The position numbers and the translations under genes were made by a program. This document shows positions 1-27,664 of a stretch of DNA of 64,000 bases, one piece after another. How positions within the stretch are numbered: position 1 is the stretch's first letter; each line of letters starts with the position of its first letter. This stretch comes from a virus (lineage: Duplodnaviria; Heunggongvirae; Uroviricota; Caudoviricetes), in the IMG/VR virus record IMGVR_UViG_3300045963_000248, positions 20,510 to 84,509 of that record. One strand, written 5' to 3'. The notes below the pieces were generated by a model, which was not told the origin of the DNA, ran no database searches, and saw only the letters and a list, made by a program, of their open reading frames with translations.

Positions 1-131
1 TTCAAGTTTTTCCACTAAATCTTTTTCAATAAAATTATCAATGCATGCTGAGCAGGGGCATTCAAATTCTTTAGAAGTAAAGTGATCTGTAATTTGAATA
101 TTTTCGTTTTTTTTGAATTTTAAAAGCATAC
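1..131 (-). CDS. partial CDS (N-terminal part, continues left of window), Cys-containing hypothetical protein
   Basis: ATG at 131..129 on minus strand; open frame to window edge (MLLKFKKNENIQITDHFTSKEFECPCSACIDNF...). Confidence 0.35.
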
Positions 132-212: not shown

Positions 213-241
213 ATAATAACACACTTTAAAAACAATGTCAA
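213..241 (-). promoter_or_regulatory. sigma70-type promoter, minus strand (TTGACA-17-TATTAT)
   Basis: revcomp of 236..241 = TTGACA; revcomp of 213..218 = TATTAT; 17-nt spacer. Confidence 0.5.
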
Positions 242-684: not shown

Positions 685-960
685 ATGCGAAAGAATGACA
701 TGTATTTTTTACTAGTATTATTATTTATTGTAAAATTGATAGCCTTGCCTATTGGATTCCCTGATGCAGCAGTACTTTTAGTATTATTAGCTTATCGACC
801 AGTATCTCAGCTTTTAAAACTGCAGGAAAAACAGAAAATTTCAAATGAGAATGCTGTAAAGTTTGCTGAAGTGGAAAATTCTTTAGAAAATATGCAGAAA
901 ACTATAGAGTCAATAAAAATTAAAGAAGCTATTGTTAACCAATTTGGTGGGAAAAGATAA
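685..960 (+). CDS. small membrane protein
   Basis: hydrophobic N-terminus; first ORF after late promoter copy 1; start overlaps next gene (ATGA). Confidence 0.45.
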   Translation: MRKNDMYFLLVLLFIVKLIALPIGFPDAAVLLVLLAYRPVSQLLKLQEKQKISNENAVKFAEVENSLENMQKTIESIKIKEAIVNQFGGKR

Positions 961-1385
961 TGACTAATTTATTAGATCTAACACAATTTCGTACTTTGAA
1001 AGAGCTTCAAGATTATGCAAATGCTCAATTTTTGACTATCAGCACTATGAAAGAAAAACTCGACGATCAAAAAAATAAGATAGCTCACTTGGAATCTTTA
1101 CTTGTAAATAAAGCTACAGTACTCGGAGTAGATTCGCAATCAGAAGAGATTGCTAAAATTGAAATAAATCGCATGTATCAAAAAGTTTTAAAAGCTCCTC
1201 TAGATTTTGCAGAAGTGAAAGCATTAGAAACGTTTACAAAAATACTTTTAGCGGCTAAAGGTAAAGAAGTTGACGAGAAAAAAGAAAAGAAAACTGAAAA
1301 AGCTTTAAAGCAATTATCACCGCAGGAATTAATTAATATTGCATTACAAAAAACTCCAGAAGAGCAGGAATCTGAAGGTAACTAA
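960..1385 (+). CDS. coiled-coil protein; candidate small terminase subunit by position only
   Basis: 141 aa, translationally coupled upstream of HNH + large terminase. Confidence 0.45.
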   Translation: MTNLLDLTQFRTLKELQDYANAQFLTISTMKEKLDDQKNKIAHLESLLVNKATVLGVDSQSEEIAKIEINRMYQKVLKAPLDFAEVKALETFTKILLAAKGKEVDEKKEKKTEKALKQLSPQELINIALQKTPEEQESEGN

Positions 1386-2026
1386 TGTCACGGGAAGATT
1401 ATTTAAAACGTCGAGAAGCTCAATTAAAATATAAAGCAGATAAACTGCGTAATAGAACCCCAGAGCAAATTGAGTTAGATCGAATTAAATCAAAAGAGTA
1501 CCGGATCGCTAATAAAGAGCGCATTAGAGAAGCTCAAAAAAAATATTACAATGATAACAAAGAGACGTTATTACAAGATGCTCAAGAATATCGAGATAGT
1601 CACCGAAAACAGATCTCCGAGAGAAACTTAAAAAAATATAAATCTGATAAACAGAAAATTCTAACTAAAAATAGAAATTACTATTACAAAAATAAAGATA
1701 GAGTTAAAGCTCAGAGAGATCAGTATCGTAGTGAAAATTTAGCGCAACATAATCATCGAAGTGCTCTGCGACATGCGGTAAAATTAAAAGCTACTCCAAA
1801 ATGGTTAACGGAAGAAGATATTTTAAACATTAAAGCTGTGTATAAAAAAGCAAAAGAGTTACAGGAGTTAGATGGGATTCCCCGAGAAGTAGATCATATA
1901 GTTCCCTTACAAGGTGAAACAGTATCAGGTTTGCATGTTCCTTGGAATTTACAAATCTTAACTAAATCTGAAAATTCCAGTAAAAAAAATAAGTTATTAG
2001 AGGAGATAGCATGTCAAGTACATTAA
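1385..2026 (+). CDS. HNH endonuclease (terminase-associated), basic YxxNK repeats + C-terminal HNH
   Basis: C-terminal GIPREVDHIVPLQGETVSGLHVPWNLQILTKSEN motif; paralog of 7843..8418 and 8873..9517; overlaps terminase start. Confidence 0.8.
   Translation: MSREDYLKRREAQLKYKADKLRNRTPEQIELDRIKSKEYRIANKERIREAQKKYYNDNKETLLQDAQEYRDSHRKQISERNLKKYKSDKQKILTKNRNYYYKNKDRVKAQRDQYRSENLAQHNHRSALRHAVKLKATPKWLTEEDILNIKAVYKKAKELQELDGIPREVDHIVPLQGETVSGLHVPWNLQILTKSENSSKKNKLLEEIACQVH
1781..1960 (+). repeat. dispersed repeat (HNH C-terminal domain coding), copy 1 of 3
   Basis: ~75-80% nt identity to 8195..8375 and 9281..9460. Confidence 0.6.
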
Positions 2027-3447
2027 CTCCTGCAGAAGCCCGTAAAGCAATATGGTTAAGCGGGAACATTGTAGATTTTCTACTAGATGCAAATCAGAAA
2101 GAAATCTATAAACAATACAAAGAATCTAGAAGGAAAACTCAAGTCGTAGTTTTAGCTAGACAGATGGGAAAGTCTTATGGACTTCTTACAATCGGAGTAC
2201 AAGAATGCCTATTACGTCCTAATATTACAGTCCACTATATAGCTCCGCGATTAAATCAAGGTAAGAAGATTGTAAGAGCTACTTTTCAAGAAATTTTTAA
2301 AACATGCCCTAAAGAATTAAGACCTGAATATAAAACTCAAGAATCCTGTTATATATTCCCTAATGGGAGTAGACTAGAGCTTGGAGGCTTTAATGCGGGG
2401 GAAATTGAATCTCAACGAGGTCCAAAATCGAACCTAATAATTTGTGATGAAGCTGGTTTCTGTGATGGATTAAATTACGGATTGCGATCTGTTCTATTTC
2501 CTAAATTAAATAGTACTAAAGGAAAAATGTTACTCTGTAGTACTTTACCAAAATCTGCAGCTCATGAATATTGGGAGATTGTAAAGAAGGCAGAATACGA
2601 TGGAACTCTCCTAAAAAAAGATATATTTGACTGCCCTAGGTATACTAAAGAAGAGATAGATAGTTTCGCAGAAGAGGTAGGTGGCTATGACTCCGTAGAT
2701 TTTCAACGTGAGTACAAATGCATGATGATTACGGACCAAGAATCCGCAGTATTCCCAGAAGCTACCGAAGAAAAAATGGCAAATATTATAAAAGAAAATA
2801 AACGTCCAGCATTTTACGATAGCTATGCAGCAATGGATATTGGTTTTCGAGACTATACTGCAGTAATATACGGATATTATGATTTTTTAAAAGGTAAAAT
2901 AATAATTGAAGATGAAATACTTTTAAAAGGTAGTAAAGTTACTACTAATTCTTTAGCGGGACTTATAAAAATTAAAGAAGATGAATTATTTCCTTCAAAG
3001 CCAGTATACCTTCGAGTATCAGATAATAATAATCCTATTTTTCTAAACGATTTAGCACAAGAGCCTCACAAATTGTATTTTATGCCAACGCTAAAAGACG
3101 ATAAGGATTCTGCAATCAGTAAAGTGAGATTATTAATCCAACAGGAAAAGATAATAATCCACCCGCGATGTAAAACACTAATTAACCACGTAAAATACGC
3201 AACTTGGGATAGTAAAAGAAGTAAATTCGAAAGAGACTTACAAAATGGTCACTTTGACGCAGCAGATGCTTTAATTTACCTGGTGCGAAACATTCAATTA
3301 CAAAAAAATCCCTATCCAAATAGTTATTTTCTCCCCGAAGGTGTTCTCTGGGATACTACCGACCGAAATGCTCCTAAAAACGATTTTGAAAAGAATATGA
3401 AGGAACTTTTTAATCCATTTCGTAAAAAAGAACAGAAAATCTCTTAA
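2011..3447 (+). CDS. terL: terminase large subunit
   Basis: Walker A-like VVLARQMGKS, Walker B IICDEAGF, C-terminal nuclease-like region; 478 aa; position before portal. Confidence 0.85.
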   Translation: MSSTLTPAEARKAIWLSGNIVDFLLDANQKEIYKQYKESRRKTQVVVLARQMGKSYGLLTIGVQECLLRPNITVHYIAPRLNQGKKIVRATFQEIFKTCPKELRPEYKTQESCYIFPNGSRLELGGFNAGEIESQRGPKSNLIICDEAGFCDGLNYGLRSVLFPKLNSTKGKMLLCSTLPKSAAHEYWEIVKKAEYDGTLLKKDIFDCPRYTKEEIDSFAEEVGGYDSVDFQREYKCMMITDQESAVFPEATEEKMANIIKENKRPAFYDSYAAMDIGFRDYTAVIYGYYDFLKGKIIIEDEILLKGSKVTTNSLAGLIKIKEDELFPSKPVYLRVSDNNNPIFLNDLAQEPHKLYFMPTLKDDKDSAISKVRLLIQQEKIIIHPRCKTLINHVKYATWDSKRSKFERDLQNGHFDAADALIYLVRNIQLQKNPYPNSYFLPEGVLWDTTDRNAPKNDFEKNMKELFNPFRKKEQKIS

Positions 3448-3459
3448 AAATCTCCAAAA

Positions 3460-3496
3460 TACACATAAATAATCAATATTTAACAACTTAATGTAG
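3460..3496 (+). promoter_or_regulatory. phage late-promoter motif copy 2
   Basis: TACACA 3460..3465, 14-nt spacer, TTAACAACTTA 3480..3490, TAG 3494..3496. Confidence 0.6.
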
Positions 3497-3525
3497 CACG
3501 AAGCTCTATAAAAATAGGTGAATAA

Positions 3526-5610
3526 ATGGTAACTACTTCAAATCGTAAAATCGAATCGACATATTTTGCCGCTAAATCCGATCCTCTGGAAGTAGCAGTT
3601 ACAGTAATGGATAAAGTAGAAACTTTTACTCAAACTCTTCGAGGTTTAGGTATTCACCAAAAACTAAGAGACTGCTGGGCAGCTTACCACGGAGCATATT
3701 ACAACACTTTCGGCGGCGGGCACCAAATTACTTTCGGCGGCGAGCAAGGTGAACTTTCTCACTTACCGATAAACCACATTAGAAATATTGCTCAACACAT
3801 GAAAACAATGACTCTAGCTTCTAGACCTAGTTTTGATGCCAGAGCAGCAAATACCGACCCAAAATCGCTTATACAAGCTCAATTAGCTTCAGGCTTACTA
3901 GATTACTATATGCGTGAAAAACGCTTAGAAAGATACATTTCTACAGCCGTGGAATACGCTATTGTTTTAGGAGCCGGGTACGTAAAGACAGCTTGGGACC
4001 AAGGACAAGGAAAAATTACAGAAAGAGATACTGACGAGGAAGGAAGAGACGTAATAATCCGTGAAGGTGATATTACTTTTTCCAACCTCTCCCCTTTTGA
4101 AGTTATTTACGACTTATCGAAACAAGATCAAAATCACGATTGGCTAATTACAGTAGAATTCAAAAATAGATACGATATTATTGCAAAGTTCCCGGAGCAC
4201 GAATCTGAAATTTTAGGGCTTGGCGGAAAAGACGAATGGCAAGGGTTAATTTTTAACAAAACTATGGCTACGGAAGAAATTCCAGTGTTTACTTTTTTCC
4301 ACAGACCTACAGATTCAGTACCTGACGGAAGAGAGATCATTTTAGTATCTGAAAACTGTGTTTTAACAGATCAGCCGCTACCGTACAAAGAAATACCAGT
4401 TTATCGAGTTTCCCCGAACGACGTTTTGGGAACTGCAATGGGTTACGCTAACATTTACGATTTATTGCCAATTCAAGATGCAATTAATACTTGCTATACT
4501 TCAGTATTTTCAAATCAAGTTGCTTTTGGGACACAAAACCTATTTGTCGAAACTGGAAGTAATATTTCCATGTCAAATTTAGGCGGCGGATTAAATATTA
4601 TCGAAGGGTTAAAAAAACCAGAAGTGTTACAACTTTTAGGAACATCCCCCCAAAGTTTTCAGTTAATTACTATGCTAGAAAATCTAATGGAAACACTTTC
4701 AGGGATAAACTCAGTCACCCGGGGTAATCCAGAAGCTAATTTAAAATCAGGAACATCTTTAGCTATGGTGCAATCTATGGCAGTACAGTTTATTTCTGGT
4801 TTACAGCAACAATATGTATGTTTACTAGAAGATGTTGGTACAGGTGTAATTAATATTCTAAAAGATTATGCTACAGAGCCGAGAGTAGCCAGTATAGTTG
4901 GAAAAAATAATAAAGCTTATTTGAAAACTTTTAAATCTGATGATTTACAAGAAGTAAATAGAGTAATTGTAGACGTAGGAAATCCTCTTGCAAAAACTAC
5001 TGCAGGAAGAATGGAAATTGCACAACAATTAATGCAAATGAAGCCTGACGACTTTACTATTGCTCAATTTATACAGTTAATTAATACTGGTAATTTAGAT
5101 GTAATGACAGATAGATCAACTAAAAAAATTAATCAACTAGAAATGGAAAATGAAAGACTAATGGCAGGAACTCCTGTAAAAGCTTTTGCATTTGACGACC
5201 ATATTGAACACATAAAAGAACATACAAGTTTACTAGACGATCCAGATATTCGTGAAAGTGACGAATTAAATGCTGCAGTATTAGCACATATTCAAGAACA
5301 CATCGATTTATCGAGAAACACTGACCCTGCAGTACAGCAAGCGTTAGGACACCAAGTTTTACCTCCTCTACCGCCGCCAATGCCAATGGACGCAAACGGT
5401 AATCCGTTACCTCCGCCTCCAGTAGGTCCAGATGGACAGCCTTTACAGGTTCCACCGGCAAATGCTCAGGGAGCTATGCAAAATGATGCTGGAAATATGC
5501 CTAATCCACCGGCACCTACTCCTAATTTACCAAATGTTCCACAGGGAGCAGAAGTTCAAGCAACAAATCCGCAAGATATGCTAAGTATTGTCGCAGGTCA
5601 GAAAAGTTAA
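3526..5610 (+). CDS. portal protein (Pro-rich C-terminal tail)
   Basis: 694 aa directly after large terminase; size and position typical of portal; C-terminal PPLPPPMP... low-complexity tail. Confidence 0.7.
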   Translation: MVTTSNRKIESTYFAAKSDPLEVAVTVMDKVETFTQTLRGLGIHQKLRDCWAAYHGAYYNTFGGGHQITFGGEQGELSHLPINHIRNIAQHMKTMTLASRPSFDARAANTDPKSLIQAQLASGLLDYYMREKRLERYISTAVEYAIVLGAGYVKTAWDQGQGKITERDTDEEGRDVIIREGDITFSNLSPFEVIYDLSKQDQNHDWLITVEFKNRYDIIAKFPEHESEILGLGGKDEWQGLIFNKTMATEEIPVFTFFHRPTDSVPDGREIILVSENCVLTDQPLPYKEIPVYRVSPNDVLGTAMGYANIYDLLPIQDAINTCYTSVFSNQVAFGTQNLFVETGSNISMSNLGGGLNIIEGLKKPEVLQLLGTSPQSFQLITMLENLMETLSGINSVTRGNPEANLKSGTSLAMVQSMAVQFISGLQQQYVCLLEDVGTGVINILKDYATEPRVASIVGKNNKAYLKTFKSDDLQEVNRVIVDVGNPLAKTTAGRMEIAQQLMQMKPDDFTIAQFIQLINTGNLDVMTDRSTKKINQLEMENERLMAGTPVKAFAFDDHIEHIKEHTSLLDDPDIRESDELNAAVLAHIQEHIDLSRNTDPAVQQALGHQVLPPLPPPMPMDANGNPLPPPPVGPDGQPLQVPPANAQGAMQNDAGNMPNPPAPTPNLPNVPQGAEVQATNPQDMLSIVAGQKS

Positions 5611-5655
5611 ATATGAAGTGGTGTAAAAAACAAATACGATAAAAGAGGGTAAGAA

Positions 5656-6369
5656 ATGCACGACGAAAACGATCCAAGATTTAAAAAATTATTAGACAAT
5701 TTAAAAAGTCAGACGGATGCGTATAACGCTGCAAATAAACCTGTAATACAAATTCCAGATTCGTTGCAAGCTCATGGCGAAGTTACTCATCAAATTCCAA
5801 TGGATATGCCAAAATCTGTACCAGCGGAGCAACTTGCTCACGTAGCGGAAGAAATTCCACATAATCCAGGAATGTTAAAAAATCTAGAAGATCAATCTGC
5901 AAAATTCCTAGGCGCTGGAAATAAAATGGAGCAATTTGATCACGTGGTAAATCCAGCAAAAATCACAGATCTTTCCCCTCAGTTACTAAATAAATACATG
6001 AAAACTGGTATCCCTTTAGTCGATAAAGCATACAGTCCACTTGGAAATATCGCAAGAAAAGCTAGTAGCCTTGCTCCAGCGCTTTTAAAAGCTTTAGGAG
6101 TAGGAGGAGCACTTTACGGAATGTCTCAGGGGGATGCTTTTGCAGCCGATCCTACAGGTATGCTACACAGCGAGGAAGCTGGAAAAGGTAGCGATGTAAT
6201 TCCTACAGGTGCAGATCATTTCAATGCAGTAAACGACTCTAGAATGGATACTAAAATACTTCCTAAAGCTATTTCCCCGCAGTCCATAGACGCAACTCAG
6301 GAACCAGAGGAGCGGGCAAAGACGCAAGCATTCGATGCACTTTTAAATCAGATGAGACAGAAGCCTTAA
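5656..6369 (+). CDS. hypothetical head-module protein
   Basis: 237 aa ORF with SD (agaggg) between portal and scaffold. Confidence 0.5.
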   Translation: MHDENDPRFKKLLDNLKSQTDAYNAANKPVIQIPDSLQAHGEVTHQIPMDMPKSVPAEQLAHVAEEIPHNPGMLKNLEDQSAKFLGAGNKMEQFDHVVNPAKITDLSPQLLNKYMKTGIPLVDKAYSPLGNIARKASSLAPALLKALGVGGALYGMSQGDAFAADPTGMLHSEEAGKGSDVIPTGADHFNAVNDSRMDTKILPKAISPQSIDATQEPEERAKTQAFDALLNQMRQKP

Positions 6370-6697
6370 AACGTTTTACATACCAGTGTTTTGAAATATC
6401 AGGTCTTCTATAAGGTATTTTAGTATTATATTTGTATACACCGTTTAGCCAAGCATACGCTACGTGCTCAGGGGAATCCGTTCCAATAGTTTTTACCACA
6501 AAATCGTAACCTAAAGATGCTTTCTGTATTTCAGACAGTTTTACATTTTTGTATTTAAATGCTTTTTTAGCGTCCGAGAGGAATTTAGGCATAATGCCGT
6601 ATTCACCTTTTGCAGAGGAAGCATGTTGTAAATATTTCCCGTCTGAGGATTCGAGATAGCGTATAATTTTTAATGTTTCAGTTTTTTGCATATCCAT
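6269..6697 (-). CDS. putative lysozyme-like / lytic transglycosylase (SLT-like) protein; convergent moron in head module
   Basis: ES...GxxGIMP...AYAWLNG resembles SLT family motifs (ES / GLMQ / AYNxG); own sigma70 promoter 6704..6732 (-); 100-nt 3' overlap with 5656..6369. Confidence 0.4.
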   Translation of the reverse strand: MDMQKTETLKIIRYLESSDGKYLQHASSAKGEYGIMPKFLSDAKKAFKYKNVKLSEIQKASLGYDFVVKTIGTDSPEHVAYAWLNGVYKYNTKIPYRRPDISKHWYVKRFKASVSSDLKVHRMLASLPAPLVPELRLWTAGK

Positions 6698-6703
6698 AAA
6701 ACT

Positions 6704-6732
6704 AGTTTACCATTAAATTACAATAATGTCAA
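6704..6732 (-). promoter_or_regulatory. sigma70-type promoter, minus strand (TTGACA-17-TAAACT) for 6269..6697
   Basis: revcomp 6727..6732 = TTGACA; revcomp 6704..6709 = TAAACT; 17-nt spacer; overlaps upstream half of late promoter copy 3. Confidence 0.5.
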
Positions 6733-6733
6733 A

Positions 6734-6772
6734 TACACAAAAACAGATCAAATTTAACAACTTATACTGTAG
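6734..6772 (+). promoter_or_regulatory. phage late-promoter motif copy 3
   Basis: TACACA 6734..6739, N14, TTAACAACTTA 6754..6764, TAG 6770..6772; 31 nt identical to copy 4. Confidence 0.6.
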
Positions 6773-6812
6773 CAAGCAATAATGCCCTACAACTATAGCC
6801 TACCCCGAAAGG

Positions 6813-7757
6813 ATGGCAACAGGAGTATTTATGTCAGGTGAAAACGAAGGGTCAATCGACTCGTCGGCGGATTTTAGTCCAGAAGAAACAGCAGAATTTG
6901 ATGCAGAACAATCAGTTGGAGAGCAAGCTCCGGTATCTGCAGAACAAAAAGCTATCGAAGAGAAAATTAACGAATTAGAAATGGAACTTAAAGTTAACGG
7001 AAAAGTTATTAAGGAAAAAGTAAACCTTAACGATAAAGTACGTTTACAAAAAGCATTTCAAATGGAAAAAGCTGCACAGGAAGCAATGGCTAAATCTGCT
7101 AGCTCTCAAAAACAAATTGCTCAGATGGAGCAGGAAATGGATCAATTTTTACAAATGTTAAAAAATGACCCAATGAAAATTCTCAGTAATCCAGCTTTAG
7201 GATTAAAACTTGAAGATATGGCAGATAAAATACTAGCACAGAAAATTGAAGAAGCTAGCAAATCTCCAGAAACTATTGAGCTAGAAAAAGCTAGAGCAAA
7301 ACTAGAAGAATATGAAAAGAAAATACACGAAGAGAAATTAGCTAGAGAAACTGCAGAAAGACAGAAATTAGAAGCAGATGCAGAAGCTCATATTCAAGGT
7401 GAAATTATGGAAGCTATCGAATCTGGAAGCTTGCCGAAGTCTCCGTATATTATTAATAAAATGGCACAGCTTGCTAGTATTGCTTTTGATAATAATATTG
7501 ATGTAAACATGAAAGATTTAGCACCTATTGTAAAACGTATGTATTCTAGAGATATGAAGGATATGGCTGAAAAGATGTCAGATGATGAAATTGAAGAAAT
7601 TATTACATCGGATCGCGTTAAGAGTATTCGAAATAAAAGAATACAGGCGGCGAGAGGTAAAATGCAAAGTGCCACTAAAATTGTAGATACTGGCTCAAAA
7701 TCTCCTGCAAAAAAAGAAACTCCAGTACAAAGACGAAGACTCGATGCTGACTGGTAA
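6813..7757 (+). CDS. scaffolding protein (acidic coiled-coil)
   Basis: 314 aa, E/K-rich coiled-coil, located between portal and capsid. Confidence 0.55.
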   Translation: MATGVFMSGENEGSIDSSADFSPEETAEFDAEQSVGEQAPVSAEQKAIEEKINELEMELKVNGKVIKEKVNLNDKVRLQKAFQMEKAAQEAMAKSASSQKQIAQMEQEMDQFLQMLKNDPMKILSNPALGLKLEDMADKILAQKIEEASKSPETIELEKARAKLEEYEKKIHEEKLARETAERQKLEADAEAHIQGEIMEAIESGSLPKSPYIINKMAQLASIAFDNNIDVNMKDLAPIVKRMYSRDMKDMAEKMSDDEIEEIITSDRVKSIRNKRIQAARGKMQSATKIVDTGSKSPAKKETPVQRRRLDADW

Positions 7758-7785
7758 GATTAACTAAAATTTAACCCCTAACTGA

Positions 7786-7808
7786 GGGAGCTTATGGCTC
7801 CCTTTTCT
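7786..7808 (+). terminator. intrinsic terminator (GGGAGC-TTATG-GCTCCC + TTTT)
   Basis: 6-bp GC-rich stem 7786..7802 then T-run 7803..7806, after scaffold gene. Confidence 0.55.
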
Positions 7809-7841
7809 ACACAAAAACAGATCAAATTTAACAACTTATAG
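7808..7841 (+). promoter_or_regulatory. phage late-promoter motif copy 4 (start codon 7843 lies 2 nt after TAG: near-leaderless)
   Basis: TACACA 7808..7813, N14, TTAACAACTTA 7828..7838, TAG 7839..7841. Confidence 0.6.
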
Positions 7842-7842
7842 T

Positions 7843-8418
7843 ATGAAACATTGTAAAAAGTGTAATACTTTAAAGTTAAAAATTGAATTCCATAAAAATA
7901 AATCATTGAAAGATGGGCTATATGGAACTTGTAAAATTTGTACTAGAGCTATCAATAAACAATATACCAAAAACAATCCGGACATTATAAAAAAATCTAG
8001 TAGAAAATCTTATATTAAAAATAAAGATAAGATACTTTTAGAGAATAAAAAATGGGCAGAAAATAATACTGAAAAAGTAAAAGCTATAAAAAATAAATGG
8101 GCTAATAAACACATAGACCAAAAAAGAAGTAAAAATAGAAGGTGGAAAAAGGAAAATCCAGATAAAGTTAATGCTCAAACTGCTAAACGTCGAGCTGCTA
8201 AATTACAAGCAACTCCTCCTTGGATATCTGAGGAGCATTTAAAAGAAATAGAAAAATTCTATACGGAAGCTAAAAGGTTAGAAGCTACAGATGGAATTCC
8301 TCGAGAAGTGGATCATATATTACCTCTACAAGGGGATGGAGTTTCCGGTCTTCACGTTCCTTGGAATTTACAAGTTATTACTGAGTTTGAAAATAGAAGT
8401 AAACATAATAAATACTGA
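7843..8418 (+). CDS. HNH endonuclease with N-terminal CxxC zinc ribbon
   Basis: CKKC...CKIC ribbon, basic NK repeats, C-terminal AKLQATPPWISEEHL...GIPREVDHILPLQGDGVSGLHVPWNL motif. Confidence 0.8.
   Translation: MKHCKKCNTLKLKIEFHKNKSLKDGLYGTCKICTRAINKQYTKNNPDIIKKSSRKSYIKNKDKILLENKKWAENNTEKVKAIKNKWANKHIDQKRSKNRRWKKENPDKVNAQTAKRRAAKLQATPPWISEEHLKEIEKFYTEAKRLEATDGIPREVDHILPLQGDGVSGLHVPWNLQVITEFENRSKHNKY
8195..8375 (+). repeat. dispersed repeat (HNH C-terminal domain coding), copy 2 of 3
   Basis: ~75-80% nt identity to 1781..1960 and 9281..9460. Confidence 0.6.
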
Positions 8419-8586
8419 GAGTGAGACACTATGCTCATAAACTGTTCCCGAAAAAGAGACACATTCTAGGTAGCGAGAGGTCGGGATAAAAAAACCTATG
8501 CTGTTAAAACCTAGAGCCTTTGGTAGTTTCGGCGGTAAGAAACATGTAAACTATTTTATCACCCAGACTTCTTAGGGATTCTGGCG

Positions 8587-8618
8587 GCAAGGCTTCTTCG
8601 GAAGCCTTTGCTTTTTTA
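8587..8618 (+). terminator. intrinsic terminator (AAGGCTTC-UUCG-GAAGCCTT + T7)
   Basis: 8-bp stem with UUCG tetraloop 8589..8608, T-run 8612..8618. Confidence 0.6.
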
Positions 8619-8647
8619 TTGACTTGTATTTAAAAACATGATAGAAT
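8619..8647 (+). promoter_or_regulatory. sigma70-type promoter (TTGACT-17-TAGAAT)
   Basis: ttgact 8619..8624, tagaat 8642..8647, 17-nt spacer. Confidence 0.5.
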
Positions 8648-8653
8648 ACAATT

Positions 8654-8710
8654 CTCCTTAGATAAAAGTTGCTTTCCAGAAGAGCCGCTACTCACAGAGC
8701 GGCTTTTTTA
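8654..8710 (+). ncRNA. candidate small RNA (~57 nt) bounded by promoter 8619..8647 and terminator 8683..8710
   Basis: no ORF or start codon; promoter and terminator only ~35 nt apart. Confidence 0.35.
8683..8710 (+). terminator. intrinsic terminator (AGCCGCT-loop-AGCGGCT + T6)
   Basis: 7-bp stem 8683..8689 / 8698..8704, T-run 8704..8709. Confidence 0.6.
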
Positions 8711-8718
8711 TTTCTCCC

Positions 8719-8738
8719 GAAATTAACACTACAGTTAA
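8719..8738 (+). promoter_or_regulatory. degenerate late-promoter-like copy (AAATTAACACTACAGTTAAT)
   Basis: partial match to TTAACAACTTA..TAG core without the upstream TACACA half. Confidence 0.3.
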
Positions 8739-8768
8739 TATTAGGAGACAAACTAGAAAATTCCTCTA

Positions 8769-8787
8769 AAATTAACACTATAGTATG
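8769..8787 (+). promoter_or_regulatory. degenerate late-promoter-like copy (AAATTAACACTATAGTATG)
   Basis: core resembles copy 4/5 (TTAACA[A]CT[T]ATAGTAT) but with 2-nt deletion and no upstream half. Confidence 0.3.
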
Positions 8788-8821
8788 TATTAAATTTTGA
8801 CATGTTTTTGTATCAAAAAAC

Positions 8822-8855
8822 TGCATAAAAAACCTTTACAATTAACAACTTATAG
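8822..8855 (+). promoter_or_regulatory. phage late-promoter motif copy 5
   Basis: TGCATA 8822..8827, N14, TTAACAACTTA 8842..8852, TAG 8853..8855. Confidence 0.55.
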
Positions 8856-8872
8856 TATAAAGTATAGTTGAG

Positions 8873-9517
8873 GTGACTGTGAAAACTTGTACAAAGTGCG
8901 GCATTGAAAAAGAATTAACGGTTGATAATTTTAAACCAAGAAAGAAGTCTAAAGATGGATTTAGAAATGATTGTAGAGTATGTTCTAATTTAAAACATGC
9001 GGAATGGACTATTGAGAATTTAGATAAAGCAAAAGCTAATCAAGCTAGATGGTATCAGAATAATAAAGAACATGCCAAAATAGTTCAAGATAAATATTAC
9101 CAAGACAATAAAGAAAAGAAATTAGCACAGCAAAAAATTTATCGCAAAAATAATAAAATAAAAATAGATTTGAAAAATAAAAACTGGGCAGATAAGAATC
9201 CTGCTAAAATAAAACAGTATAATAAAGAATTCGGACAAAGACATCCTGACAAAATTGCAGCAAAAACTGCAAAAAGACGAGCTGCTAAACTACAAGCCAC
9301 TCCTCCGTGGCTTACAGAAGAGCACTTAAAGCAAATTGAAGATTTATATACTGAGTCTAAACGACTAGAAGCTTTAGATGGGATTCCTCGTGAAGTTGAT
9401 CATATCATACCGTTATTAGGGGAGACTGTTAGAGGTTTACACGTGCCTTGGAATTTAAGAGTAATTACGGCTAAAGAAAACGGTAGTAAAAACAATAAGT
9501 TAATTCTAATAGATTAA
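8873..9517 (+). CDS. HNH endonuclease with N-terminal CxxC zinc ribbon (GTG start; alternative GTG at 8879)
   Basis: CTKC...CRVC ribbon, basic NK repeats, C-terminal AKLQATPPWLTEEHL...GIPREVDHIIPLLGETVRGLHVPWNL. Confidence 0.8.
   Translation: MTVKTCTKCGIEKELTVDNFKPRKKSKDGFRNDCRVCSNLKHAEWTIENLDKAKANQARWYQNNKEHAKIVQDKYYQDNKEKKLAQQKIYRKNNKIKIDLKNKNWADKNPAKIKQYNKEFGQRHPDKIAAKTAKRRAAKLQATPPWLTEEHLKQIEDLYTESKRLEALDGIPREVDHIIPLLGETVRGLHVPWNLRVITAKENGSKNNKLILID
9281..9460 (+). repeat. dispersed repeat (HNH C-terminal domain coding), copy 3 of 3
   Basis: ~75-80% nt identity to 1781..1960 and 8195..8375. Confidence 0.6.
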
Positions 9518-9520
9518 AAT

Positions 9521-9557
9521 TACGCAACTTTCATTAAATTTTAACAACTTAATATAG
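9521..9557 (+). promoter_or_regulatory. phage late-promoter motif copy 6 (capsid operon)
   Basis: TACGCA 9521..9526, N14, TTAACAACTTA 9541..9551, TAG 9555..9557; followed by 130-nt leader with CCUC-UUCG-GGGG stem-loop. Confidence 0.6.
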
Positions 9558-9691
9558 GATTGCCTCTTCGGGGGAATACTAGATTAGACGCACAGCAAGC
9601 TTTCTGCCCTGTAGCCATCCTATCACGTAAATACCAAAAAAGCAATACTAATTTATTAAACTTATTATTATTTTAAACAAAGGATTTTTTT

Positions 9692-10939
9692 ATGGCAAAC
9701 GTTGCCGCAGACCTAACCCGATTAAACGGGCTTGTTAAAGAAGTGTATGGAGATAGTGTTATTGAACTTATTCCAATACAATCTAAACTTCAATCAATCA
9801 TTAAATTCGCTGAGAGAAACAAAACTCCAGGGAACTTTTTCTCTCAACCTTTAGCTCTTCAATTAGAGCACGGTGTAACTTATGCAGATGGTGACGATGG
9901 AGCTTTCGCTCTTAACGACGCTATTTCTTCTGTAGTTAAACATGCAAGAGTACGCGGTTCTCAAATGCTTTTGAGATCAGTAATCGCTTACGAACTTCTT
10001 GCAGCAGCTAATACAAAAGACAACAGATCTTTTGAAAACGCTACAAAATATATCGTTCAAGCAATGGTAGATTCTATGTCTAAAAAACATGAAGTATCAT
10101 TAATGTACGGTGGTAACAACATCGGTATCGTTTCTGGAGCAGTAACTTCTGCAGTTTCGATCACTGACGCTGAATGGGCACCAGGTATCTATTCAGGTGC
10201 AAAAGATATGAAAGTTGACATCTTTGACTCTGCAAAATCAGTGTTAAGAGGAACTTTCGTAATTTCAGGTGTTGACTTCGACCTTAAAAAAATTACTATG
10301 ACAACTGACGCTGCTGCGGCTGGTGTTGTTGCTACAGACGTAATCCTTCCTGCTGGTGCATACCAAATCGGTGGATCTTCTGCTGGTAAAGAAATGGTAG
10401 GATTACACGAAATCCTAGCTAACACTGGTACACTTTTCGAAATTTCTGCTGCTCAGTATGAATTATGGAAAGGTAACGTGTATAACGCTGGTGGAGAATT
10501 AACTTTCGAAAAACTTATTAAAGCAATGGCTCGTCCGGCTGAAAAAGGTTTAGAAAAAGACGTTATCGCTATCGTTAACCCAAAAACTTGGTCATCTTTA
10601 ATGAAAGATCAAGCTGCTTTAAGAAGATTTGACTCTTCATACAGCACTAAGAAATTAGATAACGGTGCAATGGCTATCGAATTTTATTGTCAATCAGGTA
10701 AAATTGAAGTTCAATCTTCTATTTACTGTAAAGAAGCTTACGCTTATATCTTCAATGCTGAAGACATGAAACGTATTGGTTCTACAGACATCACTTTCCA
10801 ATTACCAGGATTACCAGATAATTTCTTAACTCAAGCTCCAAACAATGCTGGATATGAATTAAGATGTTACGTAAACTCTGCATTATTCTGTAGAGCGCCA
10901 GGTAAGACTTTATTGATTACGGGTATCACGCATCCATGA
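9692..10939 (+). CDS. major capsid protein
   Basis: 415 aa after scaffold; own promoter, long leader, strong terminator downstream; composition typical of a highly expressed structural protein. Confidence 0.65.
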   Translation: MANVAADLTRLNGLVKEVYGDSVIELIPIQSKLQSIIKFAERNKTPGNFFSQPLALQLEHGVTYADGDDGAFALNDAISSVVKHARVRGSQMLLRSVIAYELLAAANTKDNRSFENATKYIVQAMVDSMSKKHEVSLMYGGNNIGIVSGAVTSAVSITDAEWAPGIYSGAKDMKVDIFDSAKSVLRGTFVISGVDFDLKKITMTTDAAAAGVVATDVILPAGAYQIGGSSAGKEMVGLHEILANTGTLFEISAAQYELWKGNVYNAGGELTFEKLIKAMARPAEKGLEKDVIAIVNPKTWSSLMKDQAALRRFDSSYSTKKLDNGAMAIEFYCQSGKIEVQSSIYCKEAYAYIFNAEDMKRIGSTDITFQLPGLPDNFLTQAPNNAGYELRCYVNSALFCRAPGKTLLITGITHP

Positions 10940-10966
10940 TTTCAACTACTTAGCTAACTAAGTGTA

Positions 10967-10995
10967 GAAGGCGAGAATTTCTCGCCTTCTTTTTA
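10967..10995 (+). terminator. intrinsic terminator (GAAGGCGAG-AATTT-CTCGCCTTC + T5)
   Basis: 9-bp GC-rich stem 10967..10989, T-run 10990..10994, right after capsid gene. Confidence 0.7.
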
Positions 10996-11014
10996 ACCTT
11001 ATTAAGGATGATAT

Positions 11015-11530
11015 ATGATTAAATTTTTAATAAAATGTACAGAATGTCTAGAGGAGAAAAGTGAATCTGAATTTCATGGAGATCCTTTAAAAATTAATAG
11101 AAGAAGATCTAATTGTAAAAAGTGTGAGAATGCCAGGTGTGCTAGGTATTTTCAAAATAATAAAGAAAAGCGTAATGCTTATCAATTAGAGCGTCACCAT
11201 AAACGTAAACTAAGTGATCCTATGTATATTTTAAAACGTCGCTATAGGAATCGCCTTAAAAAAGTATTTCGCTACAAAGGCATTGTAAAAGTAACTTCCT
11301 CCATGGAATTCCTAGGATGTACCGCAGAAGAGTTTAAAGTTTATTTTGAAAGCTTATTTTCCCCCGAAATGAACTGGGATGCCGTTTACGCGGGAAAAAT
11401 CCATATCGACCATATTATCCCAATTTCCACCGCCAAAACAGAAGAAGAATTAGTAAAACTGTCACATTACACTAATTTACAACCTCTCTGGGCTGTTGAT
11501 AACTTGAAAAAAGGCTCCGGGGACATTTAG
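11015..11530 (+). CDS. HNH-family endonuclease-like protein with N-terminal Cys cluster
   Basis: CTEC...CKKC N-terminus; C-terminal HIDHIIPIS...N..PLW..DN motif. Confidence 0.55.
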   Translation: MIKFLIKCTECLEEKSESEFHGDPLKINRRRSNCKKCENARCARYFQNNKEKRNAYQLERHHKRKLSDPMYILKRRYRNRLKKVFRYKGIVKVTSSMEFLGCTAEEFKVYFESLFSPEMNWDAVYAGKIHIDHIIPISTAKTEEELVKLSHYTNLQPLWAVDNLKKGSGDI

Positions 11531-11539
11531 AAAACAAAA

Positions 11540-11575
11540 TACACACTTTACATCTATTTTTAACAACTTATATAG
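11540..11575 (+). promoter_or_regulatory. phage late-promoter motif copy 7 (ATG only 9 nt after TAG)
   Basis: TACACA 11540..11545, N14, TTAACAACTTA 11560..11570, TAG 11573..11575. Confidence 0.6.
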
Positions 11576-11584
11576 AGGTAAACC

Positions 11585-12052
11585 ATGTCTATAATTGTCA
11601 CAGTAAATAATATACCATTTAACTTACCTACAGAAGGTGAACCTGCTCCGTGGGGCGAGTCGCTTACAAATTACCTTGCTGAAGTTGCCGCTGTTTTAAA
11701 CTCTTTAAAAGGTGCTAACGACATTTTGGAAACTGGTGCAAACATTGCATTAAATCAAACTACTTTTGCCGATATTCAAGATTTTAAATTTAATCCAAAT
11801 ACAGTAAGATCTTTTATTGTTAACGGAAGTATTTCCCGAACTACAGACTCAGTAAAACAATATGAACAATTTACATTAACAGGATTACGCACCGACACAG
11901 ATTGGATACTATTCCAAGAAGGACTCGGGGATACAGGTGTAATTTTAGATATAACAAATGCCGGTCAGGTACAGTATAAATCTTCTACGATTTCCGGAAG
12001 TAATTATGCTGGTAAAATACTATTTAGAGGAATCGCAGTTGCACAAAGTTAA
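11585..12052 (+). CDS. structural protein (function unknown)
   Basis: 155 aa, first ORF of fibre operon. Confidence 0.45.
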   Translation: MSIIVTVNNIPFNLPTEGEPAPWGESLTNYLAEVAAVLNSLKGANDILETGANIALNQTTFADIQDFKFNPNTVRSFIVNGSISRTTDSVKQYEQFTLTGLRTDTDWILFQEGLGDTGVILDITNAGQVQYKSSTISGSNYAGKILFRGIAVAQS

Positions 12053-12081
12053 TTACGTTCTACAACAATTAGGGAGAGAAA

Positions 12082-15000
12082 ATGACTATTAAAACATTTA
12101 AGTATTTTGACGCAGGAATTGGATTTAAAGACCAAGCTGCAGACAACATCACGACAGAAGGCGTAATTTACAAAAACGGCAACTTTTTAAAATTATATAT
12201 TCAAGCAGCAGCGAGACAAATCGTAACAGATTCGCAAACGCAAACGCTTACAAATAAAACTTTTACTTCCCCCGTAATAAACTCGCCTACTGGTATTACA
12301 AAAGCAGACGTAGGACTCGGGAACGTAGATAATACTTCTGATGCTACAAAAAACGCAGCTACAGTTTCTTTAACAAATAAAACAATTGACGCAAGTTTAA
12401 ATACACTTTCAAATATTTCAAATGCAAGCATTGCAACTTCTGCAGCTATTGCATATTCAAAATTAGCAGCGCTTACCGCGTCACGAGCTTTAGTTTCTGA
12501 CGGAACTGGAGTAGTTTCTGTATCTACAGTAACAAGTACAGAATTAGGATTGCTATCCGGGAAAACTGGAGCACTAGTTACAACTAACGACACTGGTACT
12601 GTAACTTCAACAATGATTGCAGATAATAGTATTGTAAACGTAGATATAAATTCTGCTGCAGCAATTGCAAGAACAAAATTAGCTTCAGGAACAAATAATG
12701 CACTACAGGCAAACAATGGTTCTGGAGTTTTATCAGACATTACAGATATCACCGTAGGAACTAATAACTTCACTTTAGCAAATACAAAACACATCGAATT
12801 ACAGGCTGCTACAGATTCCACTACAACTGGTTCTAACGCTTCTTTAGCTGCGTTTACCGGTGGAGCCGTTCGCCTCACTAATGCTTCTTTGGTATCCTTA
12901 GCAAATATTCCCGCAGGTGCTAATGGGCAAGAATTAGTTATTTTTAATAGAACAGGTGTCGCAATTACAGTTGTCGATTCCTCTCTCGCTTCGGGAACTG
13001 CAGCTAATAGAATTTTCACAGGAACTTCTGCTACAATTACAATGGCAAAAGATGCTGCTTTAATTTTAAGTTACGATAGTACTTCTGCAAGATGGCAGGT
13101 AATCGGCGGAACAGGCGGCGGAAGCTCTGAATTACCATTCGATACTTTAGCGCAACAATCTTTTGAATCTGCAGTATTAACAGATTTTACACAAACTGGT
13201 TTAACTCTGGTTACAGCTAGTAACTTATTAATTAAAAATGCAAAAGCTGCACAATTAATTTCTGCGGGATCAACACAAAGTTTTAAACAGGTAATTCCTG
13301 TAGATAACGAATTCAAAGGTAAAAACCTCACATTGAATTTGTATACAAGATCTTCAGCTACACAAGGTAACGTTACAATATTGATTTTCGACGAAACTAA
13401 CGCTACAAATTTAGCCGCGTCTCAGCCAATTACGCTTGCATCGCAAGCCATTTCCGCAACAACAAATACGAATACAACACTTTCTGGACTTTCAGTTTCA
13501 GATGTTAACAAATTAAAAATTGGGCAAACTGTAACTGGTTCTGGTATTGCTACAGGAACGACAATTACTGCTTTTAGTTCTTCTGCGCTTACAGCTACAC
13601 TTTCCCAAGCTGCTTCCGCGAGTGCTACAGTTACTTTAAGAATTTCTGATTTACCGGCAAAACAATCTTTTACTTTTGACGTGCCAACTTCGTGTATCTC
13701 GCTAAGTTACACAATCTCAGCTTTAGCAGAAACAGGTTCGCCGGAATCATATTTTGACGATATCGCTATAAAATTAACTTCAACTGCTTTAAGTAGCACT
13801 AGTATTACAATTCCAAAAAATAACGACTACGACTGGGTGGATTCTGGATTAACTACTGCAAGTGCATTTCAAGGCTTTGGAACTCCCTCGGCAGTATCAA
13901 TTCAAAAAAGAAGAGTAGGGGATTCTTTATTTTTAAGAGGTTCTTTTACTATATCTACAATAACTTCTACTGAATATAGAATACCATTACCAGATTCACT
14001 ATTAATTAAAACTGGCTATGTTGCAGCTTCTCCTTTAGGTGATTTAACATTTAACGCAGCATTTGGAAATGGAAACAATTACTTTGTAGGATCTAGTGCT
14101 GCCGGAAATGGATATTTGAATATTTATATGCAATCTAATGCAGCGGCTTACGCAATTGTAAACACATCTACACCTATGCCAGTGGCTCCTTCTACTCTTT
14201 ACTTTACATCAGGACCAATTCCTATAGCAGGGTGGTCAGCAGTAGAAACAACCTCAACAACAATTCCGCTTACAACAGCGCAATTAGTTCAAACTCCTGA
14301 CTCAATGTTAAGACTTTCAGGGGGGTCAGCCACAGGTTCAGCTATTTGGACAGGATATACAGTAGTTGAAAACACCGGGTCTGCTTTTAAATTAAACTCA
14401 GCGACTGGACAAGTTACAGTTTTATTAGACGGTATCTATAATATCTCAGCTTCAGGTACAGCTTCTGCTGGTGGAGGAGCACAGATATTTGTAAACGGAC
14501 TTCAGTATGCTGGTTATGGATTCTCAACTGCTACTGGCGGAAATTTACCTTATACAGTTCCTGCTAACTTAAAAGCTAATGATATAATTTCAGTATCTAA
14601 CTCAACAGCTTCTGGAGCAGTTTCTAATGCCTTTTTAGAAGTATCCTACGCTGGCTCACTAAAACAACTGAATCCATCTTCAGATACAAAAATAACCATT
14701 CCTACTCATCAATTACGTTTTGAAGGTGCCTCTACTCGTGGAGCAGTAGCTACTCAGATTGTAAAATTTGATACACAGACAATTACTCAGGGCGATGCTT
14801 GGACAGTAGTTTCAGACTCTAATAATGGAACATATATTCAGCTTAAAAAAGCAGGTACTTTAGCTTTAACAGGTTCACTTAACCTTCCAGATCAGACATT
14901 ATACTTAACATTAAATCAAACTACTTTAACAGCAGCTCCTCTAGCTTCAGAGATATTATCATCTTCTGAAAACGTAGCAAGTAGAGTAAAAACAGCATCG

Positions 15001-16983: not shown

Positions 16984-17378
16984 TGATTAGAATGACATTA
17001 ACTATGCCTTCAGGACAATTTGTATGGCGTGATTTTGAATCTCAAGAATTAGCAGATCAATACGTAGCAGAAGTTACTTTAGGACAAAATTGGGGACCAA
17101 AACAGCAAATAATTACACATGCTGAAATTCCAGCTATTCCGGCAATTCCCGGACATGGAATTGTTCCCGCAGAATTTGATTCTTTAGGAAATGAAATTTC
17201 TCCAATGCACCCAGCTACAGCAACTATTCCAGAAGTTCCGGCAATTCCTGCTTGGAACGAAATTATTCCCGGATTTACAGTAGAATTTACAGATGTTACA
17301 GTACAAGTTTTACAGGACGAAAAACAACAAAAAATAGCCGAATTGCAAGCTCAACTTGCTGCGCTACAAGGAAATTAA
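16983..17378 (+). CDS. hypothetical protein with IPAIPAIPG Pro-rich repeats
   Basis: ATGA overlap with upstream fibre gene. Confidence 0.45.
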   Translation: MIRMTLTMPSGQFVWRDFESQELADQYVAEVTLGQNWGPKQQIITHAEIPAIPAIPGHGIVPAEFDSLGNEISPMHPATATIPEVPAIPAWNEIIPGFTVEFTDVTVQVLQDEKQQKIAELQAQLAALQGN

Positions 17379-17798
17379 ATGTTAGAGTTAGCAGTATTAT
17401 TAAAATGTTTAAATATGTACTCACACAAAGCACACCACGTTGTTGCTAGAGCAGTATTTTTACAAGACCACGAATTCTTAGCTGAAATTTACAGTAAGGC
17501 AGATTCAGATTACGACAATGTAATTGAAAGATTTATTGGGCTGAACAGTACAGAAGCTTTAGACGAGCAATCTGTATTGTCGCAAGCTGTGCAGAAATGT
17601 GGAACTTACCCGCTAAAAGGCGTAAAGGAAAACAAAGATTTACTGGTATCTTGTCTAAAACAAATACAGGAAATTAACGGTAAAATTGAAGTGCTTTGCA
17701 AGGCTTCGGGAACGACTCAGGGAACTATACAAATGATTGGTGATATTGCTGATAAAAATGAAGTATTAATTTATAAACTTAAACAGAGAGTGCAATAA
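17379..17798 (+). CDS. hypothetical protein
   Basis: 139 aa, translationally coupled. Confidence 0.45.
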   Translation: MLELAVLLKCLNMYSHKAHHVVARAVFLQDHEFLAEIYSKADSDYDNVIERFIGLNSTEALDEQSVLSQAVQKCGTYPLKGVKENKDLLVSCLKQIQEINGKIEVLCKASGTTQGTIQMIGDIADKNEVLIYKLKQRVQ

Positions 17799-17986
17799 TG
17801 AGCTGGAAATACGCGAACGAAAAACGAAAAGAAGAAAAAGTCCTAAAAGGAGTAGATCCGCTTCCAAAAGCTCCAAAAATGGCAGATTTTTCTGAAAAAG
17901 TTCCCCCGATTTCTGAGGATGGAGCAATGCAGCCTAAGCCTAAGAAATTTGGTAAATTAATGTCATCTTTGAAAAAGTATGTTTGA
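17798..17986 (+). CDS. small basic hypothetical protein
   Basis: 62 aa, overlapping start/stop. Confidence 0.35.
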   Translation: MSWKYANEKRKEEKVLKGVDPLPKAPKMADFSEKVPPISEDGAMQPKPKKFGKLMSSLKKYV

Positions 17987-18242
17987 GAAATTAAAAGCTT
18001 GGGTACATAAAGGAAATTCTCTAGGGATACCATTTCCGGTGTTTAGGGACCCTTTATCAGGTCGTGGGAGTATTTCTGCAACTTTAGTATTTATTAGCTC
18101 AATTTGTGTAGTACTTAGCTTAGTTACAAAAATAATAGATCATTCTGGTAGTTTTTCATTTTTTATAGCATCCTGTTCATTATATTTTGGAAGAAAAGCC
18201 CAAACTAAAGCAGATTCGCTTCCAGACGACAAAACTACCTAA
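17979..18242 (+). CDS. small membrane protein
   Basis: two hydrophobic segments (ISATLVFISSICVVLSLV / FFIASCSLYF). Confidence 0.35.
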   Translation: MFEKLKAWVHKGNSLGIPFPVFRDPLSGRGSISATLVFISSICVVLSLVTKIIDHSGSFSFFIASCSLYFGRKAQTKADSLPDDKTT

Positions 18243-18272
18243 AAATCATTAAAATTTAACAACTTATTGTAG
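18236..18272 (+). promoter_or_regulatory. phage late-promoter motif copy 8
   Basis: TACCTA 18236..18241, N14, TTAACAACTTA 18256..18266, TAG 18270..18272. Confidence 0.55.
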
Positions 18273-18296
18273 CGTACAACGTGAAAACGGAATAAT

Positions 18297-19052: not shown

Positions 19053-19053
19053 A

Positions 19054-19224
19054 ATGACACCATTAGAAAAAAAGAAAATTGAAGTTGAATTATTAAGAGT
19101 AAATGCGGCAAAAGAAGAAATGTATCTAAAGATTTTAGAAAGCGAAGAGCAAATTGAAAGATTAAAAAGTTTAGCAAAAATACAAGAAACAAAAGAAATA
19201 GAATTAAAAGAAAAATTAAAATAA
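19054..19224 (+). CDS. small coiled-coil protein (56 aa, below ORF-track cutoff)
   Basis: ATG 19054 overlaps upstream stop; MTPLEKKKIEVELLRVNAAKEEMYLKILESEEQIERLKSLAKIQETKEIELKEKLK. Confidence 0.35.
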   Translation: MTPLEKKKIEVELLRVNAAKEEMYLKILESEEQIERLKSLAKIQETKEIELKEKLK

Positions 19225-19274
19225 CAAAAATAGATACACCTAATGTGTATTATTAATTAAAGGGAGAGAGATAG

Positions 19275-20171: not shown

Positions 20172-20183
20172 TTAGGATTATAA

Positions 20184-20920: not shown

Positions 20921-20928
20921 GGATAAAT

Positions 20929-24562: not shown

Positions 24563-24571
24563 GAGTAAAAT

Positions 24572-25383: not shown

Positions 25384-25384
25384 T

Positions 25385-27622: not shown

Positions 27623-27627
27623 CTAAA

Positions 27628-27664
27628 TACATAAAATTAGAGTATTTTTAACAACTTAATGTAG
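27628..27664 (+). promoter_or_regulatory. phage late-promoter motif copy 9
   Basis: TACATA 27628..27633, N14, TTAACAACTTA 27648..27658, TAG 27662..27664. Confidence 0.55.

Follow-up and report, generated by a model that had tools for sequence, protein, structure and literature searches.

Family-1 lytic transglycosylases (Pfam SLT, PF01464), among them MltE/EmtA, MltC and Slt70 of Escherichia coli, carry the motifs of Blackburn and Clarke, which reportedly include GLMQ (motif II), AYNxG (motif III) and YxxKV (motif IV). A similar fold recurs in phages, both in SLT/GEWL-type endolysins, for which linkage to holin or spanin genes is usual, not obligatory, and in the N-terminal domain of T7 gp16 and the T7-like internal virion proteins. 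Mutants of the gp16 transglycosylase reportedly show delayed entry of the DNA, above all into stationary-phase or cold-grown cells, whose walls are highly cross-linked. Moreover, polyvalent proteins and proteins encoded in the post-portal MuF position have been described as virion-packaged and injected, frequently with lysozyme domains that are postulated to breach peptidoglycan at invasion (Iyer et al., PMC5512222). Here we analysed a gene for a divergent protein of this predicted fold, found in a stretch of 64,000 nucleotides (nt) from a virus of the Caudoviricetes (IMG/VR record IMGVR_UViG_3300045963_000248, positions 20,510 to 84,509), which is referred to below as the window. The gene is an open reading frame (ORF) of 142 amino acids (aa) on the minus strand, located between portal-proximal genes and the scaffold gene, as an earlier reading of the sequence (the original prediction) had described. 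It is an unannotated variant of a well-known kind of enzyme in an unusual but explicable arrangement, and does not overturn current understanding.

The ORF spans 6269..6697 (-) from an ATG start; the range originally given, 6269..6732, comprised the ORF and its promoter. It is the sole minus-strand gene inside the plus-strand structural block (~685..40363) and lies at the sole gap of that block, the 443 nt of 6370..6812, in which no plus-strand ORF is present and around which the operon is otherwise tightly packed. Replication and early genes are found on the minus strand from ~40.6 kb on. At its 3' end the ORF shares 101 nt (6269..6369, both strands) with the convergent post-portal gene 5656..6369 (+), which encodes a 237-aa protein with a Gly/Ala-rich C-terminal module. 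On its other side, transcription diverges from that of the putative scaffold gene (6813..7757, +), which encodes a charged 314-aa protein and precedes the major capsid gene.

Several lines of evidence demonstrate that 6269..6697 (-) is a real gene under purifying selection. Pairwise ratios of non-synonymous to synonymous substitution (dN/dS) over the core were 0.07–0.19 in the minus-strand frame where dS was unsaturated, and residues 2–110 are well conserved among homologues, whereas the last ~30 residues, which are coded antisense to the neighbouring gene, are not. A 37-sequence alignment delimits this conserved catalytic core to residues 1–110 (6368..6697, -), ending in ...HWYVKRF, with the codon of the putative catalytic Glu16 at 6650-6652 (-). 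The non-conserved tail, residues 111–142 (6269..6367, -), is antisense to the last 33 codons of the plus-strand gene, and its length varies from 24 to 41 aa among homologues. Base composition is that of the surroundings, with a G+C content of 0.345–0.378 (window, 0.361) and a G+C at third codon positions (GC3) of 0.275, which matches the neighbours (0.22–0.29 in the other genes measured). No terminator-like hairpin was detected on either strand at the convergent junction, where folding was no better than that of shuffled sequence, so convergent read-through in both directions is plausible, the antisense interference originally proposed being hypothetical.

A search of 5.8 billion proteins recovered 11 homologues with 57–78% identity, all of them metagenomic, and a profile search of 1.84 billion cluster representatives extended these to 63 relatives. 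Direct searches of Pfam, PHROGs, NCBIfam and the PDB sequences with the window protein gave no match, nor did the PDB when it was searched with profile A1 or with profile A4, the latter being the 37-sequence domain alignment. In particular, the window protein fell below the gathering threshold of Pfam SLT (PF01464) and had no match to it even at E<=1. Weak SLT matches were obtained for 10 of the 58 remote relatives scanned, with scores of 16.6–21.2 bits against a cut-off of 21.3; in two of them (P0070 and P0050, 20.5 and 21.2 bits) the match spanned exactly the region homologous to the query.

The A4 alignment exhibits five invariant columns (E16, H25, G31, W83 and G86) and seven near-invariant ones (S17, A29, Y33, G34, P37, A60 and V107), S17 being conserved in at least 90% of the 37 sequences. 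These columns fall in the motifs ES, A.G.YG[IL]MP, AY.WLNG and HW[HY]VK[KR], which resemble motifs I–IV of the family-1 lytic transglycosylases; the ES, GxxGIMP (here GxYGIMP) and AYAWLNG motifs noticed originally are invariant or near-invariant features of the whole family. Compared with the family-1 enzymes, the motifs appear as variants (YG[IL]MP, with Pro in motif II in place of Gln; AYxWLNG; HW[HY]VK[KR]), and His25 and Trp83 are additional invariant residues.

AlphaFold2, run on the A4 alignment, produced a model with a mean predicted local distance difference test (pLDDT) of 88 and a predicted template-modelling score (pTM) of 0.78; when only the 11 close homologues were used the pLDDT was 59, too poor for use. 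The predicted structure has a goose-type-lysozyme-like alpha-helical fold, one helix of which carries the single Glu of the E-S motif at its C-terminal end; the tail is modelled as an extension of the last helix, along which the pLDDT falls from 91 to 59. In Foldseek searches of the PDB the top matches were lytic transglycosylases, with high probability and E-values of at least 0.16, and in BFVD they were phage SLT or LT_GEWL proteins, including small ones of 135–187 aa and T7-like internal virion proteins from Xylella phage Cota, Escherichia phage phiKT and Burkholderia phage JG068. An hhalign comparison of A4 with E. coli MltE gave a pairwise E-value of 0.0036 with a probability of just 9%, and placed E16-S17 on the catalytic E64-S65, A.G.YGIMP on AIGLMQL, and AWLNG on SYANG. 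Structure prediction therefore bears out the likeness to family-1 lytic transglycosylases that was originally proposed; the identity of the window protein to the solved structures of this family is 9–18%.

A hydrophobicity scan revealed no signal peptide, membrane segment or hydrophobic N-terminal segment in the window protein which, unlike the bacterial family-1 enzymes, also has no lipobox and carries its Glu 16 residues from the N-terminus. Modelling and motif analysis together thus show a small protein, predicted to be cytoplasmic, with a goose-lysozyme/SLT fold and an ES catalytic motif. Although related to the family-1 lytic transglycosylases, it has diverged strongly from them and lies outside the family by the hidden Markov model threshold; the modelled fold would suit a lytic transglycosylase or a hydrolytic lysozyme alike. 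In any case, an SLT-like subfamily with ~60 clusters at 50% identity in metagenomes has been missed by sequence searches of Pfam, PHROGs, NCBIfam and the PDB, and since it has invariant residues of its own (His25, Trp83 and the Pro that replaces the SLT Gln), many phage "hypothetical proteins" could be re-annotated.

The inverted arrangement is conserved. Five related lineages were examined, those of the window, L001, L002/L003, L004 and L008, the last four with protein identities to the window of 57–72%, and in all five the gene is inverted between one or two post-portal genes and a scaffold-like gene. The convergent overlap of about 100 nt noted originally for the window is likewise present in every lineage, with 101 nt in the window, 52 in L001, 80 in L002, 92 in L004 and 128 in L008. 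In four of the five, the last core codon (the Phe of YVKRF) overlaps the stop codon of the neighbour by exactly 2 nt, a junction geometry which argues that the overlap is a stable feature. The transglycosylase gene is therefore a core gene of an uncultured lineage of podovirus-like phages of ~80–85 kb. Megablast and tblastn searches of the GenBank phages gave no relative of the gene, and the best match of the portal among them was a Silvanigrella phage with just 27% identity, so no cultured relative provides context. No relative was found either when 185,579 bacterial and archaeal species were scanned with profile A1, and tRNA genes that could hint at the host are absent.

The post-portal genes that separate the portal gene from the transglycosylase gene are paralogues (5656-6369; L001:6378-7298; L002:6329-8326; L004:6332-7779; L008:4326-5754), whose products have variable N-terminal parts and a common Gly/Ala-rich C-terminal module of ~80 aa, as detected by phmmer in the window, L001, L002, L004 and L008. 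Judged from this common module, they may be cargo proteins with a shared capsid-targeting signal. An HExxH motif (HELSHPYDE, HEIGHAND) was observed in the post-portal proteins of L001, L002 and L004 and is absent from the 237-aa protein of the window. Gly/Ala-rich segments also precede the domain in some remote relatives, from which the idea arose that the post-portal neighbour and the transglycosylase were once a single polypeptide; this was rejected, as the neighbour proteins did not resemble the N-terminal parts of the multidomain relatives in a phmmer comparison.

In more distant phages (L007, L009 and L011–L016; 26–47% identity) the gene points the same way as its neighbours. In L009 a distance of 203 nt separates it from the next gene downstream, which encodes a 316-aa protein homologous (E 1e-23) to the 314-aa scaffold-like protein of the window, which implies that the adjacency of transglycosylase and scaffold genes is older than the inversion. 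In L007 it is found between the portal gene and a gene for a 324-aa protein, and its neighbours encode small, very basic DUF5872 proteins, a 138-aa protein and two ART-PolyVal proteins. The gene is thus inside the structural and morphogenesis block, as expected for a virion hydrolase, in inverted and co-oriented lineages alike. Genes for a 952-aa GNAT-domain protein and for a 719-aa protein with a weak S-AdoMet-lyase match precede it in L005 and L006. Moreover, roughly half of the remote relatives are multidomain proteins of 300–900 aa, some with GNAT domains, in which the domain forms the C-terminus, and the association of such C-terminal domains with ART-PolyVal and GNAT in virion-gene neighbourhoods resembles that of the polyvalent and MuF-linked proteins. 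As a separate observation, the co-oriented clade (L007:7304-8928; L009:3531-3997; L011–L016, ~4000) shows flanking small, very basic proteins, DUF5872 and a "MATPAKGKRF..." family; by eye its conserved 138-aa protein looks like a Dps-like four-helix bundle, and this protein and the basic ones form a possible set of internal head proteins.

A sigma-70-type promoter, TTGACA-17-(TG)TAAACT, was identified upstream of the transglycosylase gene at 6704..6732 (-), with TTGACA at 6732-6727, a spacer of 17 nt, and TAAACT at 6709-6704 preceded by the TG of an extended -10. The bare consensus match is not above chance (4 sites vs 4.6 expected in shuffles of the region), and the assignment draws on conservation as well. 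At the equivalent place L008 has TTGACA-17-TAAGAT (5 nt from the -10 to the ATG), L004 has TTGACT-17-TAGACT (17 nt, with GGAG) and L001 has TTGACT-17-TAATAT (16 nt to the second ATG, with AGGAG). A promoter has thus been kept in four of the five lineages (window, L001, L004 and L008) although the spacer sequence differs, in agreement with the separate promotion claimed originally; none was found in L002, where a co-oriented ORF lies upstream and a GIY-YIG gene nearby. Because the -10 ends 6 nt from the ATG in the window phage and 5 nt from it in L008, and no Shine-Dalgarno sequence precedes the ATG in either, their transglycosylase mRNAs are probably leaderless, transcription being predicted to begin at the A of this codon.

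The same promoter class (TTGACA-16/17-TAnACT, often with TG) precedes minus-strand early and middle genes at 42145, 44841, 48798, 52163 and 56993, where a scan of the window placed the sites 16–51 nt upstream of the genes. The structural genes, rather than this class, carry the motif TTAACAACTTA. Since the promoter is of the class found in front of early and middle genes, the transglycosylase gene is probably transcribed by the host RNA polymerase, independently of the surrounding late operon.

The repeated element that had been called a late promoter proved to be real as a repeat, with 10 exact copies of TTAACAACTTA, all of them plus-strand, intergenic and upstream of structural genes (window positions 561, 3480, 6754, 7828, 8842, 9541, 11560, 18256, 27648 and 35416), and with a AAATACACA-like element ~15 nt further upstream of every copy. 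Its distribution suggests a late promoter or an activator site that is peculiar to the phage. The third copy, AAATACACA-N15-TTTAACAACTTA (6730..6770, +; repeat families D3 and D4), would be the late promoter of the scaffold-like gene. The original prediction had the minus-strand promoter overlapping the upstream half of this copy, which is roughly right in place, the actual overlap being ~3 nt between the AAATACACA element (6730-6738) and the -35 hexamer; the two putative divergent promoters are thus back-to-back. Two further observations concern this region and the first copy. The 5' untranslated region of the scaffold-like gene at 6786-6812 (GCAAGCAATAATGCCCTACAACTATAGCCTACCC) is matched nearly base for base in L001, L004 and L008, lineages whose proteins are just ~60–70% identical, and is a candidate RNA operator or structured leader. 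Ahead of the first TTAACAACTTA copy, two perfect sigma-70 consensus promoters are found on the plus strand at 340-368 and 404-431.

The role that we favour for the protein, with a probability of roughly 0.5, is that of an entry enzyme or packaged peptidoglycan-cutting enzyme belonging to the head and ejection set. It is favoured because the linkage to portal and scaffold genes extends to distant phages, because of the multidomain relatives, and because there is a precedent in the packaged lysozyme domains described in PMC5512222. The enzyme would be one of the head and ejection proteins and make local cuts in the glycan strands of peptidoglycan; packaged in the virion and released at infection, it would open a way through the cell wall for the DNA-delivery channel. 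Once the head genes are on, expression of the transglycosylase gene could be damped by the late transcription that converges on it.

A number of points weigh against this role. The 142-aa single-domain protein has no recognisable virion-attachment domain and, compared with virion-associated domains, it is free-standing, encoded on the opposite strand and driven by a host-type promoter, and its packaging is putative. Transcription of the gene is predicted to be separate from that of the structural genes and to start from a promoter of non-late type, which would be unusual for a structural component. Motif II carries Pro in place of the Gln of SLT enzymes, and the enzymatic activity is putative as well. 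Small, soluble, single-domain muralytic enzymes are typical endolysins in phages of Gram-negative hosts. Several remote relatives carry N-terminal signal-like segments, which suggests exported enzymes and not packaged cargo. In L009, L011 and L012 the gene is found a few genes downstream of tail-fibre-like PHROG matches, and lysis genes often sit near tail-fibre genes. Finally, a Peptidase_M15_3 gene at the left edge of the window, the other lysis candidate, is followed by two genes whose products have no membrane segments, so that its locus is no textbook lysis cassette.

A more specific version of the packaged-enzyme reading, which we consider rather doubtful, takes the conserved inversion as a timing device, in which antisense embedding controls the dosage of the packaged enzyme. 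The host-type leaderless promoter would produce the enzyme before late transcription begins, and convergent late transcription would then shut the gene off, by collision or through duplex RNA over the 52–128-nt overlap. A small, fixed dose of enzyme would thereby be loaded into procapsids with the post-portal proteins. Being natural and compact, the arrangement lends itself to the study of convergent transcription within the late operon of a phage.

The strongest competing explanation, tentative but to be taken seriously, is that the protein is the endolysin of the phage, the sole one or one of two, accumulating in the cytoplasm from its own promoter and gaining access to the wall only after a holin encoded elsewhere has permeabilised the membrane. 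The protein resembles SLT/GEWL-type endolysins in size, solubility and fold, with a single lysozyme-like domain and no secretion signal, and its promoter is independent of the structural operon. With Pfam and PHROGs no second muralytic domain was detected in the window, either among its large structural proteins or among its small ORFs (for a batch of 74 ORFs, 25 of 71 PHROG families were listed), and no other glycosidase-type muralytic domain was present in the 64-kb window among the matches listed. The signal-like N-termini of several remote relatives recall exported lysins, and further small candidate membrane proteins are encoded, for example, at 47999..48226, 52544..52753 and 63156..63347. 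Against this, the flanks in all five lineages are post-portal and scaffold-like genes, with neither a holin nor a spanin gene next to the transglycosylase gene; the long-conserved linkage is to the portal-scaffold block and not to membrane-protein genes; and in many relatives the domain ends multidomain proteins of 400–900 aa, which is atypical for endolysins.

The case for an endolysin also leaned on the original argument that no other was obvious, and this is weakened by the Peptidase_M15_3 gene, which continues beyond the left edge of the window. Over 6,763 nt two contigs, L018 and L019, match the window with 100% identity, so they represent the same phage, and they extend beyond that edge; mapping through them showed that the 5' part of a 134-aa gene (L019:6635-7039), which starts at ~129, occupies 1..129 (-). 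Its product has the motif SGYRC..HN...SAH..G.A.D...HVD, and a putative sigma-70-type promoter, TTGACA-17-(TG)TATTAT, which was grouped with that of the transglycosylase gene and those of the early and middle genes, is located at 213..241 (-). Divergent from it, and conserved in L001 and L004, a gene at 685..960 (+) encodes a 91-aa protein with one N-terminal transmembrane segment in the hydrophobicity scan and a charged C-terminal part; this protein may be a holin or a spanin-like partner. The M15 peptidases include classical endolysins, such as that of phage T5, and we infer that this peptidase is the more likely lysis enzyme. A window edge can thus hide a real endolysin candidate. The M15 gene was also observed to head an operon with genes for an AAA ATPase and a metallophosphatase-like protein.

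It is unlikely that the locus is mainly regulatory, acting through antisense RNA or as a roadblock on the post-portal gene or on read-through into the scaffold gene, with the protein secondary. Such a function would account for the convergent overlap that every one of the five lineages shows, four of them with an identical junction geometry, for the lack of a terminator between the genes, and for the back-to-back divergent promoters sharing ~3 nt. However, strong purifying selection acts on the protein core, the catalytic-motif residues are invariant, conservation of the gene is lowest in its overlapped part, and distant relatives, in which the gene is co-oriented, have no antisense arrangement.

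An independently acquired accessory cassette expressed from the prophage, that is, the moron or lysogenic-conversion function suggested by the original prediction, is very improbable. The gene does have its own promoter and an orientation opposite to that of its neighbours. However, it occupies the same site in every related lineage examined, always in the same orientation, and its linkage to the scaffold gene predates the inversion; its G+C and GC3 are ordinary, no terminator of its own was found, the 185,579 bacterial and archaeal species yielded no relative, and no integrase is among the family matches listed for the window. A chance antisense ORF with no product, for which it can be said that the bare promoter match is not above chance, is next to impossible in view of homologues with dN/dS well below 1, the confidently predicted fold and the position in a 443-nt gap, without any plus-strand ORF, of a tightly packed operon.

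Some further features were observed elsewhere in the window. Paralogous HNH-type endonuclease genes with a common 256-nt repeat (D1) are found at 7843-8418, 8873-9517 and 1385-2026, as well as at L001:3846-4436 and L002:5024-5635. They are placed between the scaffold-like and major capsid genes and beside the terminase gene, and GIY-YIG genes occupy comparable spots in relatives, an arrangement that suggests a hot spot for homing endonucleases. The sequence of 6733-6785 recurs, nearly unchanged, in the promoter region at 7807-7859.

One of the 74 ORFs of the window that were scanned carries an Ice-binding-like domain (PF11999, E 3.4e-67); judging only by its N-terminal TAGNFVILA motif, this is probably 62283..63074 (-), a predicted lipoprotein of 263 aa. 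Residues 559–586 of a 703-aa structural protein (32847-34958, +) gave an N-terminal Hint-domain match (PF05203, E 5e-6) below the Pfam cut-off, which could mark an intein or an autoprocessing site. Finally, a 172-aa protein (42366-42884, -) combines a hydrophobic segment at its N-terminus with a PhageMetallopep domain (HELGH; 23.9 bits, cut-off 23.7), and its gene follows that of a signal-peptide-bearing ClpP-like protease (41306..42085); from these features, both proteins would be membrane-anchored or exported proteases.

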